A stretch of 64,000 nucleotides of DNA from an uncultured Bacteroidia bacterium. GTDB taxonomy: Bacteria > Bacteroidota > Bacteroidia > Bacteroidales > UBA932. The translations under genes were made by a program, and so were the position numbers. Under the pieces are notes generated by a model that worked only from the letters and a program-made list of their open reading frames with translations, ran no database searches and had not been told where the DNA came from. Numbering within the stretch: position 1 is the first letter of the stretch; every line of letters begins with the position of its first letter. Of this stretch, positions 14,151-38,359 are shown piece by piece. The DNA lies in contig CACYHC010000003.1 in NCBI GenBank assembly GCA_902774145.1, forward strand, positions 16,254 to 80,253, given 5' to 3'.

Positions 14151-14749
14151 CGGTAAAAAAGCACGCCGAAGTACACCCGCGGCCCGACGGGCATCTGCAA
14201 GTCCCGTCCGAAGCCGCAGAGGCAATCGACCTTCAGGGTCAGGTGAATGGCTTTCGTCAGAATGAAATCACAGCCCACGAACGGGTCCACGGCCATAAAG
14301 CCCTGCTTGCGGTAGCGCGTCCCGTCGATGGGGGCCCACGCTTCGGAGGGCGTCTCCGTCATCAGCACCGCCGTCATCGCTCCGCCGCCGAGCGTCACCC
14401 CGCCGTAGGGCTGGAAACGGCCGAATACGCCATAGACATCCGCGAGAATCCCGCCCCAGCCATAGCGGAGATAACTGCCGTTTCCACGCAGGTTCATCGT
14501 CGAGACATACCCTTCCCCGCCGATGCGGAAGCATTTTCCGAGATGCAGGCGCGCCACGCCGCCCAGCCCGAACGGACATCCGCTCACCGGCGCCTCGCCC
14601 GGGACCAGCGTCCCGCCGAGGTACCCTGCATGCAGCATCATCCCGCCGTCAAAGCCCCGCAGGACCTTTTCTTTGGGTTGCGCCCACACCCCCGCCGACG
14701 CCAGCAGGCCCAGCGCCAGGACAAGGGTTTTTAGACTTTGGCATTTCAT
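14147..14749 (-). CDS. Hypothetical exported protein, probable small outer-membrane beta-barrel
   Basis: Signal peptide from ATG 14749 (MKCQSLKTLVLALGLLASAGVWA), Gly-rich amphipathic strands, aromatic C-terminus VYFGVLFYR; its stop overlaps the truA stop. Confidence 0.7.
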   Translation of the reverse strand: MKCQSLKTLVLALGLLASAGVWAQPKEKVLRGFDGGMMLHAGYLGGTLVPGEAPVSGCPFGLGGVARLHLGKCFRIGGEGYVSTMNLRGNGSYLRYGWGGILADVYGVFGRFQPYGGVTLGGGAMTAVLMTETPSEAWAPIDGTRYRKQGFMAVDPFVGCDFILTKAIHLTLKVDCLCGFGRDLQMPVGPRVYFGVLFYR

Positions 14750-14778
14750 CGCGGTCCGGTCCTTTTCAATTTCCGCGG

Positions 14779-14786
14779 CAAATATA
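14779..14786 (-). promoter_or_regulatory. -7 element for the beta-barrel gene
   Basis: Minus strand TATATTTG ~30 nt before ATG 14749; palindrome TTTTTGCAAAAA at 14791-14802 just upstream. Confidence 0.5.
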
Positions 14787-14801
14787 TCAATTTTTGCAAA
14801 A

Positions 14802-14902
14802 AGGGCCCTGCGTTTCTTCAAAATCGCCGAAATTCTTAAAAGGCAGGGACCTCGGGGCCCTGGCTTTCTCCTATAAGCCTGAAAAATCAAAAATGGCGGA
14901 CC
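14802..14902. repeat. Decayed doublet of ~50-bp palindromic units
   Basis: AGGGCCCTG(14802-14810)...CAGGGACCT(14844-14852), then GGGCCC(14855)...CGGACC(14902); period 52. Loop words CAAAATCG and TCAAAAATGGC are shared with the 15404-15506 units. Confidence 0.55.
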
Positions 14903-15059
14903 TTTTCCACGAGCGCAGGCGGCCGCGAGGGATAATGTCTATTTTGAAAGTTTGCCCCAAGACTACGTGGCGGAATTACTTCTTAAAGCGAGGGCCTCGC
15001 GGGCGGGGACTTTTGCGCGACTCGATTACCCATCCGTATCACGGTTTATCATCTCACCG

Positions 15060-15091
15060 CAAAGGTAAGCATTATGATCTGAATCACCAAA
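15060..15091 (-). promoter_or_regulatory. Canonical Bacteroidota promoter with no substantial ORF downstream
   Basis: Minus strand TTTG (15091-15088), 20-nt spacer, TACCTTTG (15067-15060). Confidence 0.65.
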
Positions 15092-15267
15092 TATCATAGT
15101 GTTGCCCAACTCGTTAGCAGAGTATGCCTGAGGCGGAAAGCAATGTCGCGCTGCATCGGCACCACCGCCTCGCAAATACGCGGCTCGGCGGTTACAGGAC
15201 GGGCGCTGCGCCGGGCTCGATGGAGCGGCCCGCTCCGCGCCCGCCTGTTGCCAGCTGCTAATCCGAA

Positions 15268-15506
15268 GGTCCGGCAACCTGGCAAAAATGAGGCAATTTC
15301 TTCGGGGTTGCGGGCCCCCTGGTCCGGCAACCTGCCAAAAAGCGCTATGATATTTAGGGGTTGCCGGACCTGCTCGCCATTTTGCAACAATGATAACCGG
15401 TAAGGTACAGCGGACAGCACGTTTTTGGCTGATTTTGAGAGATCTGCTGTACCCCGGGGACAGCGGATCTGAAGATTTGTGCCATTTTTGACCGATCCGC
15501 TGTCCC
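15268..15506. repeat. Four 50-bp palindromic units in two doublets (REP/BIME-like)
   Basis: Units 15268-15317, 15321-15370, 15404-15453, 15457-15506, each exactly 50 bp, with 3-bp spacers within doublets. Arms are GGTCCGGCAACC/GGTTGCCGGACC and GG(T/G)ACAGCGGA/TC(C/T)GCTGT(A/C)CC; loops contain A5/T5 tracts. Confidence 0.85.
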
Positions 15507-15540
15507 TGGCCGCCGGCCTCTGGGAAATAGCGGGAATCGG

Positions 15541-15670
15541 CGAAGAAAAGCGGGAGCGGGAGACGCCCTGTAGCGGCGTTAAGCCGGAGGGCCGGAAGGG
15601 TTCGGGCGGCGTAGTCGCCCGTGACTCGTGAACGGGACCCACGAAGTGGGAGGGATAGACCCGCAGGACG
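15541..15670. other. GC-rich cluster of short hairpins with C-GNA-G triloops
   Basis: CGGGCGGC-GTA-GTCGCCCG (15603-15621) and CCCAC-GAA-GTGGG (15638-15650). Confidence 0.4.
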
Positions 15671-15691
15671 CGTTAATGGCAAAATAAATAT

Positions 15692-15699
15692 TACATTTG
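15692..15699 (+). promoter_or_regulatory. -7 element for the transglutaminase-like gene (near-leaderless)
   Basis: TACATTTG ending 4 nt before ATG 15704, in an A/T-rich patch. Confidence 0.5.
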
Positions 15700-15703
15700 C
15701 ATT

Positions 15704-17221
15704 ATGTTTACTTATAGAACTTTATTGGCGTCCTCCGTATGCCTGACGGCGATAGCGTGCGGGAAGATGGCAGAACCCGGACAGGAACAGGATTCCCCAT
15801 CGACAAAGATTCCCGTCACCTCCATCCTCCTGGACAAAACGGAATTCGAACTGGTATTGGGAAAGTCCGAGACGCTGTCCGCCACCATATCCCCCGAGGA
15901 CGCCACTGACAAAACCGTCCTGTGGAATTCGTCAGATCCCTTTGTCGCCACGGTGGCAAACGGGAAAGTGACCGGGGTTAACGAAGGAGAAGCGGATATC
16001 ACCGCCAGGGCCGGAGAGATAGAAGCCACCTGCAAGGTGAAGGTCGTCCCGCCCGCCCTGGTGGAAGCGCTTTCCTCGGACGCCGCCATCCTGAACGGGA
16101 CCGGCGGGAAAACCACCGTCACCCTGTCTGCTCCGGCAAACTGGGAAATTACTTCAGATGCCGGGTGGCTTTCCGCATCCCCCTCCTCAGGAAAGGCAGG
16201 TACCCGCAAAATCACCCTTTCTACAGAATCTAATAGCAGTCCCGATAACAGGACGGGGCTCCTTACCTTTTCTTCCGGCAGCAGGAAGCAAGTACTGAAG
16301 ATTATCCAGCGGCCTGATATTTTCACAAAAAAGACGGCGGCGGAAGGGACCATCACCAATGCCATCAAAGTGGACTACAACGGAACGGTCTTTATGAGAA
16401 TCTACACGATTCTTCCCGTTCCGCAAACCAATGCCTATCAAGAAATTTCATCGCTGGAAACGGGGGCGGGAAAAATTGAATCCTGCGCCAACGGAAACCA
16501 GTATATGATTACCGACCTGAATAGTAGTTCCATTCCCGCCTCCGGACAATACGCGGCCTCGGAGTCCTTCCATATAAAGGCGTATGAAGTCACGGCTGCA
16601 CTGGACAGAATCACCGATATCCCCGAATATGACCAGACCTCGGAGGTCTGCAAAAAATACCTGGGGAAGGAATACGGTGACCTTGTGAACCCGGAGCATT
16701 CCGAAATCGTTTCCGTGGCGGGCCAACTCTGGTCAGAGACATCCGGCCAGTTGATCGATTATGCGAGACACTGCTACGAGTGGACGGCGCGGAACATCAG
16801 ATACGGAAATATGAATACCGGTTTGCACACGATTGCAGAACTGATGAAGACCAAAAAGGGAGATTGCGGCAACTTCTGCTCTGTTTTCATTTCCCTGCTA
16901 AGGGCAAAGGGAATCCCAGCCAGGCACATTGTTATGATTTCTCCCCGGGAAAGCGCCTATCACGTCCGGGCTGAATTCTATATCCCCGCCTACGGCTGGA
17001 TTCCGGCGGACCCCACCTTCGAGAACGGCAATCCGGCCGGGGATTACTTCGGCAATTTCACCGGTGCCTATGTCATTATGTCCACGGGAGTCAATTCAAG
17101 TTGTAAAGACGCGAACAATGCACTTTTCAAGGCCGGTCTCCTTCAGTCCTTCTTTTTCTGGTACTGGTACACTTACGCCGGAGACAACTTGAATTTCTCC
17201 CACGTCTTCTCGTCCTTTTAA
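15704..17221 (+). CDS. Lipoprotein with Ig-like Big_2, BACON and transglutaminase-like domains
   Basis: Lipobox LTAIAC; Big_2 (LSATISPEDATDKTVLWNSSDPFVATV); BACON (WEITSDAGWLSASPSSG...NRTGLLTF); triad motifs GDCGNF, YHVRAEFY, GWIPADPT. Confidence 0.85.
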   Translation: MFTYRTLLASSVCLTAIACGKMAEPGQEQDSPSTKIPVTSILLDKTEFELVLGKSETLSATISPEDATDKTVLWNSSDPFVATVANGKVTGVNEGEADITARAGEIEATCKVKVVPPALVEALSSDAAILNGTGGKTTVTLSAPANWEITSDAGWLSASPSSGKAGTRKITLSTESNSSPDNRTGLLTFSSGSRKQVLKIIQRPDIFTKKTAAEGTITNAIKVDYNGTVFMRIYTILPVPQTNAYQEISSLETGAGKIESCANGNQYMITDLNSSSIPASGQYAASESFHIKAYEVTAALDRITDIPEYDQTSEVCKKYLGKEYGDLVNPEHSEIVSVAGQLWSETSGQLIDYARHCYEWTARNIRYGNMNTGLHTIAELMKTKKGDCGNFCSVFISLLRAKGIPARHIVMISPRESAYHVRAEFYIPAYGWIPADPTFENGNPAGDYFGNFTGAYVIMSTGVNSSCKDANNALFKAGLLQSFFFWYWYTYAGDNLNFSHVFSSF

Positions 17222-17256
17222 GGACAATACATTGCCGTAGCCGCGAAGGGAAAGGG

Positions 17257-19947
17257 CTAGAACAGGGTCAGTTGGCCGTCGGATTCCAGGCCTTCGGCAT
17301 CCGGGAGGCCGGCGATGTTTTCGGGGTGGTTGTCCCCGATGCCGGAGAGGATATCGACGCCCTCTTCGACGGCAGGCTCCGGCTCCTCGTCCTCCGGCCG
17401 CACCAGCGGCTCGATGAAGCGGACGAGCTTGACCTCGCCCCGGTCCACGCACTTCTTGCCCTTGGCGCCGATGCCCTTCTTGGCAATCCACTCCTCCGCC
17501 TCCACGATATCGGCGGGCTTGTCGGAAATTTTCCAGATGACCTCGTAGCGGGGATGCAGGTCGTCGCTCAGGCCGGCGAGGAAGGACTTCGCCCCGTCGG
17601 CAATGAAAGAGAGCGGCGTATTGTCGCTCACGACAAAGGAGAAGCGCTTCACATAGAAAGCCTTGGCGGCGGCATCCCAGTAGAGGGCGGTAAAGGTCTT
17701 GTTCGGGTCGAACTTCTCGATGCGCAGCACGTCGCCCTGGTACTTGTTCACCAGGTCGAAGGAAGTGGTATAGAAGGTACCGTTCTTGAAAATCGCCAGG
17801 ACCTTGTCGTCGGAAGAGAACTGGCCGAGATACTGCCCGCGGCCGTCCTCGTTGAGTTTCTGGATGTCGGCGTCGTACCAGATATCCTTGCCGGCGATGG
17901 TGGAAACGCCCTGCGCGCGGAGGGTAATCTTGCTGACGACATTCTTGGTCACCAGATTGCCCCGGACCCCTTTTCCCTTGATGGCCAGGGTCGAGAAATC
18001 GAAATCGAAATTCGTCTTTTTGAGCTTCGGCCGGGGCCGGAGTTGCACCCGCACCGTCTCCGCCTCGCCGTTGTGGTTCACGCTCAGCCACTCGACGCGC
18101 GAATCGGGCGTGCCGGCGGTGAGGTCGTAATCCCGGTCACGGGTGACGGAGGTCAGAGCAAAACGCTTGGCGTAATAGAGCGAGGTCTTGCCGTCGCGGT
18201 AAATGGCATTGTAGACCGTGCGCGCATCGCCGCGGTTGAACACGCCGACATAGAGCAGGTCCTTGCCGTAGAAGGCCTTGTCGCTGACCTTTGCGATGCG
18301 GTAGTGCCCGTCGCGGCCGATGACGATGATTTCCGAAAGGTCGGAACAGTCGCAGATGTATTCGCCGCCGTCGTCGCGCTTGAGCCCGATGCCCACGAAG
18401 CCCTCGGCGAGATTTGCCTGCAGCTTGGCGTTGTTGTTCACCACGCGGGTAGCGGCGATGCTCTCGAAGCCCGTCAGGGTGGTGCGGCGCGGGAAGTCCT
18501 TGCCGTATTTCTTCTTCAGGGCCTTGAACCAGTCGATCGTATAGCGGTTGATGTGCGCCAGGTTCTCCATGACGGCGTCCATCTGCTCGTCCAGGGCGCG
18601 GATATGCTCGTCCATCGCCTTGACGTCGAACTTGGAAATCTTGCGGACCGGCTTCTCCACCAGACGCTCGATGTCCTCCATGATGATTTCGCGCCGGAGG
18701 CTGTCCTGGAAGGCCAGCATCCGCTCGAACACCTCGCCAATCTGCGTCTCCCAGTCCGGATGATCGTGCTCGAGCACCTTGTAGATGCGGTTCTCGAAGA
18801 AAATCTTCTCCAGCGACGAGTAGTGCCAGTCGTTCTCCAGTTTGGAGAGTTTCAGGTCCAGCTGCTGCCGGAGCAGTTCGCGGGTATGGTTCGTGGAGTA
18901 CTCCAGGATATCGTTCACGCTGAGGAACTGCGGCTTGCTGTCCACGATGACGCAGGCATTGGGCGCAAGGTTGTATTCGCAGTCCGTAAAGGCGTAGAGC
19001 GCGTCGATGGTCTTATCCGGCGACACGTCTCCGGGCAGGTGAATCAGGATTTCCACCTTGTCGGTGGTCATATCATCGATTTTCTTGATCTTGATCTTGC
19101 CCTTGTCCCGGGCCTTCAGGATGGAATCGATGATCATATGCGTGGTCTTGCCGTACGGCAGTTCCGTAATGGAAATGGTGCTCTTGTCGATCTTCTCGAT
19201 CTTCGCGCGCACCTTCACGCTGCCGCCGCGCCGGCCTTCCATATATTTCGAGCAGTCGGCAAAACCGCCCGTCGGGAAATCGGGATACAGTTCGTAGGGC
19301 TTACCTTCGAGAATCGCCACCGACGCGTCGATGAGCTCATTGAAATTGTGGGGCAGGATCTTCGAAGCCATACCCACGGCGATGCCGTCCGTACCCTGCG
19401 CCAGCAGCAGCGGGAAGCGCACGGGCAACTCGACGGGCTCCTTGTTGCGGCCGTCGTAGGAGTTCATCCAGTGGGTGATTTCCGGATCGAAGATGACTTC
19501 CTTCGCGAATTTGCTCAGGCGCGCCTCGATGTATCGGGGCGCCGCGTTGGAATCGCCGGTAAGGATATTGCCCCAGTTTCCCTGGCAGTCGATGCAGTAG
19601 CCCTTCTGCCCCAGTTGCACGAGCGCGCCGAGAATGGACGCATCGCCGTGGGGGTGGTACTGCATCGCCTGGCCCACAATGTTCGCGACCTTGGTGTAGG
19701 CGCCGTCGTCCATACGGTACATCGCGTGCAGGACGCGCCGCTGTACGGGCTTCAGACCGTCCACGATATGCGGAACGGCACGGTAGAGGATGACATACGA
19801 CGAGTAATCCAGGAACCAGTCCTTGAACATCCCGGAGAGTTTGTACTTCCGGGAATCGCTGCCCAGCAGCCGGGCGAATTTACCGCTCTGCTCCTCAGCC
19901 CCTTCTTCAATGGGTTCTTCCTGAATGATATCGTCGTATTCTTCCAT
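17257..19947 (-). CDS. parC: DNA topoisomerase IV subunit A (Bacteroidota ParC type)
   Basis: RAVPHIVDGLKPVQRR, YHPHGDASI, AAPRYIEARL, GIAVGMASKILPHNF. Confidence 0.9.
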   Translation of the reverse strand: MEEYDDIIQEEPIEEGAEEQSGKFARLLGSDSRKYKLSGMFKDWFLDYSSYVILYRAVPHIVDGLKPVQRRVLHAMYRMDDGAYTKVANIVGQAMQYHPHGDASILGALVQLGQKGYCIDCQGNWGNILTGDSNAAPRYIEARLSKFAKEVIFDPEITHWMNSYDGRNKEPVELPVRFPLLLAQGTDGIAVGMASKILPHNFNELIDASVAILEGKPYELYPDFPTGGFADCSKYMEGRRGGSVKVRAKIEKIDKSTISITELPYGKTTHMIIDSILKARDKGKIKIKKIDDMTTDKVEILIHLPGDVSPDKTIDALYAFTDCEYNLAPNACVIVDSKPQFLSVNDILEYSTNHTRELLRQQLDLKLSKLENDWHYSSLEKIFFENRIYKVLEHDHPDWETQIGEVFERMLAFQDSLRREIIMEDIERLVEKPVRKISKFDVKAMDEHIRALDEQMDAVMENLAHINRYTIDWFKALKKKYGKDFPRRTTLTGFESIAATRVVNNNAKLQANLAEGFVGIGLKRDDGGEYICDCSDLSEIIVIGRDGHYRIAKVSDKAFYGKDLLYVGVFNRGDARTVYNAIYRDGKTSLYYAKRFALTSVTRDRDYDLTAGTPDSRVEWLSVNHNGEAETVRVQLRPRPKLKKTNFDFDFSTLAIKGKGVRGNLVTKNVVSKITLRAQGVSTIAGKDIWYDADIQKLNEDGRGQYLGQFSSDDKVLAIFKNGTFYTTSFDLVNKYQGDVLRIEKFDPNKTFTALYWDAAAKAFYVKRFSFVVSDNTPLSFIADGAKSFLAGLSDDLHPRYEVIWKISDKPADIVEAEEWIAKKGIGAKGKKCVDRGEVKLVRFIEPLVRPEDEEPEPAVEEGVDILSGIGDNHPENIAGLPDAEGLESDGQLTLF

Positions 19948-36650: not shown

Positions 36651-36724
36651 GCCGATATAGCTCAGCCGGCCAGAGCGCGTGATTTGTAATCTCGAGGTCG
36701 TGGGTTCGACTCCCTCTATCGGCT
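36651..36724 (+). tRNA. tRNA-Thr(UGU)
   Basis: GCCGATA/TATCGGC acceptor stem, anticodon loop TT-TGT-AA, GTTCGAC T-loop. Confidence 0.92.
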
Positions 36725-36741
36725 CAACGAAAGCGATATCC

Positions 36742-36826
36742 GGGTGAGTACCAGAGCGGTCAAATGGGGCAGACTGTAAATCTGCTGGCGATGCCTACGG
36801 TGGTTCGAATCCATCCTCACCCACCA
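36742..36826 (+). tRNA. tRNA-Tyr(GUA)
   Basis: GGGTGAG/CTCACCC stem, CT-GTA-AA loop, long variable arm, encoded CCA. Confidence 0.95.
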
Positions 36827-36857
36827 AGCGGAAGAGAATCGCGGCTTCCGCCATCTT

Positions 36858-36932
36858 GCGGGGTTCGTATAATGGCTATTATGCCAGCCTTCCAAGCTGG
36901 AAATGGGAGTTCGATTCTCCTACCCCGCTCCA
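36858..36932 (+). tRNA. tRNA-Gly(UCC)
   Basis: GCGGGGT/ACCCCGC stem, CT-TCC-AA loop, GTTCGAT, encoded CCA. Confidence 0.93.
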
Positions 36933-36941
36933 CATTAAAAA

Positions 36942-37013
<72 letters not shown>

Positions 37014-37047
37014 CTTTTTTGTTGATAACAACTTTATACATAATATT

Positions 37048-38235
<1,188 letters not shown>

Positions 38236-38253
38236 GAGAAACTGAATTCCGCT

Positions 38254-38281
38254 GCGGGCGCCCGGGTAACCGGGGGCCCGC
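38254..38281 (+). other. GNRA-capped hairpin between tuf and tRNA-Trp (possible processing/stability element)
   Basis: GCGGGCGCCCGG-GTAA-CCGGGGGCCCGC with one mismatch; no U-tract. Confidence 0.5.
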
Positions 38282-38285
38282 ATTC

Positions 38286-38359
38286 AGGGGAATAGAACAA
38301 GGGTAGTTCAGCGGTCTCCAAAACCGTCGATGTGGGTTCGAATCCTGCTTCCCCTGCCA
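38286..38359 (+). tRNA. tRNA-Trp(CCA)
   Basis: AGGGGAA/TTCCCCT stem, CT-CCA-AA loop, GTTCGAAT, encoded CCA. Confidence 0.93.

Follow-up and report, generated by a model that had tools for sequence, protein, structure and literature searches.

The window, the whole stretch of 64,000 nucleotides that was analyzed, carries between its parC and truA genes a 954-bp non-coding stretch (14750-15703) in which a set of palindromic units is found. On one side, this stretch is bordered by a gene encoding a 200-aa signal-peptide protein, which adjoins truA, and on the other side by a gene encoding a 505-aa Big_2/BACON/transglutaminase lipoprotein, which adjoins parC. The parC-truA interval was found to be hypervariable among contigs of the same species, and in the form found in the window this island comprises a doublet of units named D1-D2, a 290-bp insert, a second repeat named G, the doublets U1-U2 and U3-U4, and the 505-aa gene. 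The organism is an uncultured Bacteroidales of the ruminant gut, and all the sequencing runs containing the region were bovine, sheep, goat or fermenter metagenomes. A called 218-aa ORF covering the non-coding stretch was considered as a real gene and rejected: it is rich in Arg, Pro and Ala and has no Pfam match, and its database relatives were two only, one identical and one 85% identical, both lying over the same repeats. Therefore, having no family and no relatives beyond these repeats, it was treated as spurious. Elsewhere in the window, a cluster of five tRNA genes was observed at 36651-38356.

Hairpin units and their pairing in doublets

Four palindromic units of exactly 50 nt each, starting with GG and ending with CC, are found in the stretch: U1 (15268-15317) and U2 (15321-15370) on the minus strand, and U3 (15404-15453) and U4 (15457-15506) on the plus strand. 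Their GC-rich arms measure 12 nt in U1 (10 of 12 paired), 12-13 nt in U2, where they are perfect (GGTCCGGCAACC), 11 nt in U3 and 13 nt in U4 (GGGACAGCGGATC), and enclose loops of 24-28 nt that bear a T-tract. The 3-bp spacers inside the doublets (CTG and CCG) result in a 53-bp period, and a 33-bp single-copy linker (15371-15403), with depth equal to that of the flanks, separates the two doublets. In the doublet U3-U4, the first unit carries an 'a'-type loop and the second a 'b'-type loop; U1, also with a 'b'-type loop, is the second unit of the doublet U2-U1 when read on the minus strand. A third doublet, D1-D2 (14803-14901, minus strand), has a period of 52, and its D2 unit is decayed in the window. 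When single-strand folding was compared with dinucleotide shuffles, three of the four units reached z values of -4.3, -5.1 and -5.7 (0 of 200 shuffles), the folding of U1 being weaker than that of the other three (z = -2.3). A hairpin scan (40-64 nt) revealed no further non-coding unit of the U1-U4 kind in the 64-kb window; two other 50-nt hairpin matches lay within the truA and parC coding sequences and did not match the family model. Tandem Repeats Finder did not report the doublets, because the loops within one doublet are only ~50% identical.

A covariance model (R1) was built from 12 distinct units gathered from all the island forms, a new doublet, V1-V2 from locus L142 (arms GGGACAGCAACC), being included among them. 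These 12 units align nearly gap-free. Their GC-rich arms, of 12 bp (consensus GGKMCRGCRRNC) and with positions G1, G2, C5 and G/C8 conserved, enclose a 26-nt loop in which the T-tract motif GCnnATTTTTG is conserved at a fixed position. Arm pairing was kept in 85.8% of the cells over the 12 units, both sides having changed in 8 of the 12 pairs, and the arm covariation score was 0.443, against 0.173 in shuffles (0 of 500) and at most 0.207 in slid controls. Additionally, the model scored U4 with 57.7 bits on the plus strand versus 23.7 on the minus strand, U2 with 51.5 on the minus versus 25.9 on the plus, U1 with 44.1 on the minus versus 30.5 on the plus, and U3 with 52.2, placing U1, U2 and D1 on the minus strand and U3 and U4 on the plus strand. 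Since the units score strongly on one strand only, they have a direction, and the doublets U2-U1 and U3-U4 of the window face each other. In the third doublet, D1 (14803-14851, minus strand) reached 43.5 bits (E = 6e-6) and D2 (14855-14901) remained under the model threshold in the window, while in L089, which represents another strain, the D2 counterpart (14163-14211) is intact, with a length of 49-50 nt and a score of 41.6 bits. An earlier note on this DNA had described four 50-bp units with 3-bp spacers and 11-13-bp arms, doublets facing each other, a decayed third doublet and compensating arm changes, and each of these descriptions was borne out by the measurements above.

That note had taken the single unit as the repeated element, which must be corrected, as the conserved, repeating object is a doublet of ~103-105 bp, composed of unit a, 3 nt and unit b; a second correction is that the D doublet is single-copy. 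The doublets of four subfamilies are 103 nt long and align ungapped, the 'a'-type loop preceding the 'b'-type one. Within a doublet, one and the same sequence is found in all four arms, and the changes between subfamilies keep complementarity. Pairing is preserved alike within units (81.6%) and across units, between outer and outer and between inner and inner arms (80.7%). As all four arms match, the whole doublet can still fold back on itself, and in two of three doublets the DNA minimum-energy fold was indeed the long fold-back. In strain variant B, U1 is missing as a precise 53-bp indel, for which slippage between the direct arm repeats would be a sufficient explanation. In runs X1, X5, X8, X37 and X41, a joint at 15288/15332 was observed between a U1-like 5' arm with its early loop and a U2-like arm on the opposite strand, which would correspond to a family member with a much shorter loop elsewhere in the genome.

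Such a fixed geometry could be expected of protein-binding or regulatory DNA, in which half-sites placed 38 bp apart on a bent T-tract spacer and recurring every 53 bp upstream of divergent promoters would act as an operator, an insulator or a scaffold for a nucleoid protein. The earlier note had suggested such a scaffold, remarking that 53 bp corresponds to about five helical turns. The conserved arm positions and loop motif agree with this explanation, and each doublet points to its downstream gene, U3-U4 and V1-V2 toward the 505-aa gene and U2-U1 toward the DUF3791 or the 200-aa gene. Moreover, the mismatches showed no bias of G:T over A:C, as wobble pairing would leave; nothing in them points to one transcribed strand, and they are consistent with selection on duplex or single-stranded DNA and not on one RNA strand. 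However, the arm sequences differ between adjacent doublets, so that one protein could not read all of them by base contacts, and the dispersed copies are near-identical even at positions that vary between subfamilies, which indicates recent copying and not ancient independent sites. Relatives with the same genes also occur without units: in the nearest GTDB species representatives, located by a truA-anchored scan and with TruA proteins 85-89% identical, the orthologous loci held no units by hairpin scan or model R1. Therefore, a regulatory origin of the family was considered unlikely.

Other candidates were discarded from the arrangement of the units. An invertible promoter was rejected given that the arms are just 26 bp apart and that no inversion joint occurs at unit ends, and CRISPR was rejected since the repeats are inverted and not direct. 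A Bacteroidetes promoter was likewise rejected, as the loops contain a -7-like CATTTTTG and no -33 TTTG at 19-21 nt.

Copy number, dispersal and companion repeats

The copy number of the doublets was inferred from contig depth in metagenomes and not counted in a closed genome. In run X1, a metagenome dominated by the organism of the window and whose contigs are identical to it, the single-copy depth was 65-72 in the flanks and 59.5 in the 33-bp linker (15382-15399). In the same run, the depth over U3-U4 reached ~600-680 at a likeness of at least 90% and ~2100-2400 at a likeness of at least 80%, and at this latter level it was ~990 for G and ~500 for U2. Overall, U2 was estimated at ~6 times, G at ~14 times and the U3-U4 doublet at roughly 5-30 times the single-copy depth, U3-U4 occurring on many separate contigs with different flanks, while the D doublet was single-copy by depth. 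The U3-U4 depth in X1 was spread over 34 contigs; the eight listed among these have a depth of 36-78 each, near that of the genome itself, and thus probably belong to the same genome. Independent samples gave ratios of ~5-10, part of which could be supplied by related species in samples without this strain.

It was also verified that the other copies depart from the window sequence at 15403/15404 and at 15508, with both flanks varying. Since the sequence past these points varies by contig, the dispersed element ends exactly at the doublet ends, and on the basis of loose contig ends and depth steps the dispersed element proper was delimited to 15404-15508 on the plus strand. Additionally, the identity of the hairpin module remains at 96-98% in L141, a second sequence context, and in L133 (98%), a genome whose core flanks are ~88% identical, as expected of recent spread. 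The existence of other copies, on which the earlier note had made its proposal of a family depend, was thus supported by the raised depth of U3-U4, its separate contigs and its different flanks. In the fetched sequence, no match to model R1 was obtained outside the island in 632 kb, relatives included, and the pattern scans, the model search over these 632 kb and two protein-database searches with the spurious ORFs all led back to the island; there were no copies beyond the left end of the window, where the region is gene-dense.

These properties recall the miniature inverted-repeat elements (MITEs) of bacteria, such as Correia/NEMIS, RUP and BOX-like elements, which are ~100 bp long, non-coding and dispersed, end in terminal inverted repeats and undergo read-through transcription. 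According to this explanation, the units would have originated from an insertion sequence of the DDE type, whose transposase would bind the outer 12-bp doublet arms as terminal inverted repeats. A dispersed, near-identical element of ~103 bp with 12-bp terminal inverted repeats fits the size and form of a MITE, and single units can result from deletion between the direct arm repeats. Nevertheless, no target duplication was found at the ends of U1-U2, U3-U4 or V1-V2, and no parent insertion sequence with ends matching the arms was present in the fetched sequence. Furthermore, the terminal repeat recurs internally, and the same arms inside the element, with compensated changes across subfamilies, are unexpected for a simple decay of terminal repeats, which makes a MITE origin rather unlikely.

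In the RNA runs, metatranscriptome contigs covered G, the doublets and the purine-rich stretch T that follows them, the flanking genes having zero depth. This coverage, together with the stability of the hairpins as RNA and the toxin-antitoxin and Abi cargo found nearby in other strains, could indicate a structured RNA, such as small RNA genes, 3'-end stabilizers or a repeat-type antitoxin for neighboring toxin genes. However, the RNA depth profile follows the DNA copy number, so that no dedicated transcript is demonstrated, and trace DNA or read-through of many copies would account for it. In addition, G:U pairs are no commoner than A:C mismatches, the units lie upstream of both flanking promoters, Rfam returned no match, and the doublets of the window occur without any toxin gene. 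The repeats of type III toxin-antitoxin systems are also different, since here each array is limited to two units, a promoter separates them from the gene, and the window holds no toxin gene. An RNA function was accordingly regarded as very improbable.

The repeat G (15159-15252), a GC-rich sequence of 94 nt with a Y-shaped fold, is a second dispersed element, with a depth of ~14 times and varied flanks. In its copies, double changes that preserve pairs were observed, the commonest variants being 15196 A>G with 15246 T>C and 15198 G>C with 15244 C>G, which are compensatory in the second stem. G matched no Rfam family. Often, a doublet of varying subfamily and in either orientation comes after it at a distance of 10-33 nt, the subfamily and the spacer of these G-doublet combinations differing between loci, which configures a mosaic as in BIMEs. 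Since G is abundant in a sheep sample nearly devoid of doublets, it represents a separate element. In several rumen samples, the depth of a further repeat, E (~14952-15069), was 2-20 times the local value, and E also occurred in RNA runs, one polyA library among them. In its other copies, a terminator-like hairpin (AGGAGGCC..GACCTCCT) comes before it and differing sequences containing CGCAAAATGAAAC come after it, and E may be a conserved leader or a small RNA.

Relation to REP, REPIN and BIME elements

Small palindromic repeats have been thoroughly studied in Proteobacteria, but descriptions are scarce for Bacteroidales, the order that is dominant in gut and rumen communities. The doublets found here had no match to Rfam at gathering scores in the window or in eight loci, the window being searched in E-value mode as well; the best sub-threshold match had E = 0.15. 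No match to the units was found in phage and plasmid collections. In viral contigs, exact patterns of the U4 arms, the U2 arms and the G core gave two chance coding matches or nothing. The U4-arm pattern had 41 matches in JGI metagenome contigs, of which 40 were unrelated hairpins and one (L133) was the same island in a related species, and protein-database searches with the ORFs over the repeats retrieved three proteins only, all in the island or a variant of it. No described family thus matched the units, as the earlier note had supposed, either in Rfam, the phage and plasmid collections and the viral contigs or among the published Bacteroidetes REPs of subclass 2.6.

The closest likeness is to REP and REPIN sequences associated with RAYTs. 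As in those, the elements are short extragenic palindromes, multi-copy by contig depth, whose pairs may be able to form one long hairpin, which cause no target duplication, whose stems covary between subfamilies and which cluster with other repeats. REPs have short loops, and their dimers are mostly arranged head-to-head (PMC3733652). However, whereas REPs measure 20-40 bp, with loops mostly of 2-5 nt, the units described here have 50 bp and a conserved 26-nt loop. The GT[AG]G or CGTC foot of REPs is absent, the foot of the units being GGKMC (GGTAC, GGGAC, GGTCC, GGGCC), and the units of a doublet are head-to-tail by loop orientation, with a 3-bp spacer. Moreover, the copy number is low (tens), and neither the window nor the fetched loci yielded a RAYT by motif scan. 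The enterobacterial BIMEs offer a second likeness, as they are mosaic intergenic clusters of palindromic units and motifs (here G and T) in combinations that vary by locus, although in the present case the orientation does not switch from each unit to the next and the sequences are unrelated. Within the same phylum, the REPs flanking Y1 genes of subclass 2.6 (Bertels group 5) have been described as 'atypical' and without GTAG (PMC6006769). The published ones are 24-nt hairpins with 8-bp stems and 3-nt loops, e.g., GCTAGCGCGAGCGTCCCGCTCGTG (PMC6006769), and bear no resemblance to the 50-bp units.

Since size, loop, foot and pair orientation all depart from those of REPs, the doublets were classed by their way of working as REP/BIME-like, without being placed in that family itself. 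In appearance they differ from the described Bacteroidetes REPs, and they seem to represent a new variety of REP/BIME-type repeat. The doublets are small, non-coding, structured, multi-copy by depth, with compensated stems, mosaic with G and recently copied, and thus behave as REP/REPIN and BIME elements do. The reading preferred here, to which roughly even confidence is assigned, is that they constitute a lineage-specific family of small, dispersed, non-autonomous repeats of the REP/REPIN/BIME type with an unusual architecture. Among the three possibilities raised in the earlier note, namely a REP/BIME-like element, recombination sites or a protein-binding scaffold, the first therefore fits best; the association with RAYT/TnpA or tyrosine recombinase genes suggested in the same note found no counterpart in the window or the fetched loci.

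In this reading, a single strand of the doublet would fold either as two hairpins or as one long fold-back, and the folded strand would be recognized and copied in trans by an enzyme encoded elsewhere. The likeliest candidate for this enzyme would be an HUH/Y1 (RAYT/IS200-like) transposase, another transposase being less likely. Bacteroidetes carry RAYT-type Y1 genes with atypical REPs (PMC6006769). A motif scan (HUH...Y only) detected no HUH/Y1 transposase in the window or in ~0.8 Mb of loci of the species and close relatives. No pair of empty and filled sites proving transposition was found, the only clean indel being that of U1 (53 bp). The copies would survive in dispensable DNA and, in this way, would pile up in the parC-truA cassette hot spot, where the doublets may also offer short homologies for strain rearrangement. 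Such an explanation needs no cellular function, a secondary role as terminator, insulator or protein site being possible. A fixed 50-bp unit with a large conserved loop and four co-varying arms would imply a mode of recognition unlike that of known REP/RAYT pairs, and this difference could point to a new mobilizing enzyme. Additionally, metagenome assemblies are interrupted by these repeats precisely where accessory genes form a hot spot, and familiarity with the repeats helps to read strain variation.

Variation of the island and possible cassette exchange

Besides the form found in the window, three other forms of the island were recognized. A second one is devoid of the 505-aa gene, the 290-bp insert and U1, and has an intact D2; in a third one, G and U1-U4 are kept and 14796-15157 is replaced by DUF3791-DUF3990 and AbiGi genes; and a fourth one has a shikimate-kinase-like and a PIN gene, with no units in its assembled part. 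Related genomes present yet other island cargo. Across the window (14750-17260) and loci L004, L008, L089, L090, L097, L133, L141 and L142, the cargo varies by strain and species, including the 505-aa transglutaminase lipoprotein, DUF3791-DUF3990-71aa, AbiGi, a PRTase-like gene, SKI+PIN_3 and an IS110 transposase, as well as a pair composed of a 114-aa protein and a ~500-aa Lcl_C lipoprotein. The 505-aa gene and its promoter (15657 to ~17235) are 99.3-99.5% identical in L009 and L142, with flanks of ~88% and both edges sharp, and the gene is absent in some strains. An identity so far above that of the flanks, with sharp edges, points to recent transfer between species, and the accessory nature attributed to this neighboring gene by the earlier note was thus upheld. 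Breakpoints between strains are located at G, T and the D doublet or within them, and the contig ends of metagenome assemblies coincide with the repeats at the island.

These observations underlie the main rival worth keeping, according to which the doublets, G and T would be folded-strand sites for the insertion, excision and swapping of cassettes by a site-specific recombinase, in the manner of integron attC sites. The attC sites are likewise imperfect palindromes that act as folded single strands among swapped toxin-antitoxin and defence cassettes. In favor of such sites are the cargo that differs by strain and species, the 505-aa cassette shared almost unchanged by genomes ~12% apart in their flanks, and the position of the strain breakpoints. 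The 13-nt motif GCCGCGARKGGRA is also in agreement, since in the island it is confined to cassette ends and always in a single orientation (window 17240-17252; L090 13642 and 16698; L142 9209 and 12364), with no match in the other 130 fetched loci. On the other hand, no integrase or recombinase gene, intI included, was found in any island variant, the sole exception being an IS110 transposase in one contig, ~400 bp from a G copy. The R and L boxes of attC sites are missing and the stems are perfect, with no extrahelical bases; regarding the attC pattern (RYYYAAC...GTTRRRY), the GTT/AAC core occurs only in the U1/U2/V subfamilies, GTTRRRY being absent from U3, U4 and D. Moreover, the units lie in tandem pairs and not one per cassette, and copies also occur away from cassettes, with many different flanks. 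The inversion or excision that the earlier note had proposed to look for was not seen either, as the contig joints included no inversion or precise-excision joint at unit ends, the listed joints being other arrangements of the repeats. For these reasons, a role as recombination sites is regarded as quite improbable.

A related explanation, to which only a small probability is given, sees in the doublets, G and T the components of a Bacteroidales cassette-exchange system, either independent of an integrase or not yet recognized, in which folded-strand sites would border toxin-antitoxin, Abi and surface lipoprotein cassettes and allow these to pass between species. If true, such a system would explain how a cassette and a hairpin module 98-99.5% identical are found in genomes that differ by 12% elsewhere, and repeats taking part in the exchange would be markers of a mechanism by which genes flow among rumen Bacteroidales. 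Under the preferred reading, that of REP/BIME-like repeats, the doublets of the island would instead have accumulated there as copies tolerated in dispensable DNA.

Several minor features of the island were also recorded. The purine-rich stretch T (15509-15669), which reaches the promoter of the 505-aa gene, is partly repeated elsewhere in the island, with partial repeats at other cassette borders (L142 9070-9240; L096 10186-10290), and a long-range inverted repeat (GGAAGGGTTCGG / CCGAACCCTTTC) is found in T', its longer form. In L141, the IS110-family transposase (3-389; Transposase_20, E = 2.9e-16) lies ~400 bp from a diverged G copy (G'), with a 69-aa ORF between them, and because of this intervening ORF the possibility that G' was an IS110 bridge-RNA region was rejected. 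A short remnant (MPEAESNVAL...) at 15100-15160 matches the end of a small ORF of L133 (…AETITAMREAESNVALDSFDL…) and looks like the leftover of a lost cassette gene. Beside the 505-aa cassette, the C-terminal codons of parC (17300-17400) are hypervariable, with ~70 differences per 100 bp. In both L008 and L009, 415 bp (window 14190-14603) are also missing from the 200-aa gene, and a 10-bp direct repeat, CCCGCAGGAC (14656-14665 and 15660-15669; L009 4586-4598), flanks a 1-kb segment that is missing in L009.
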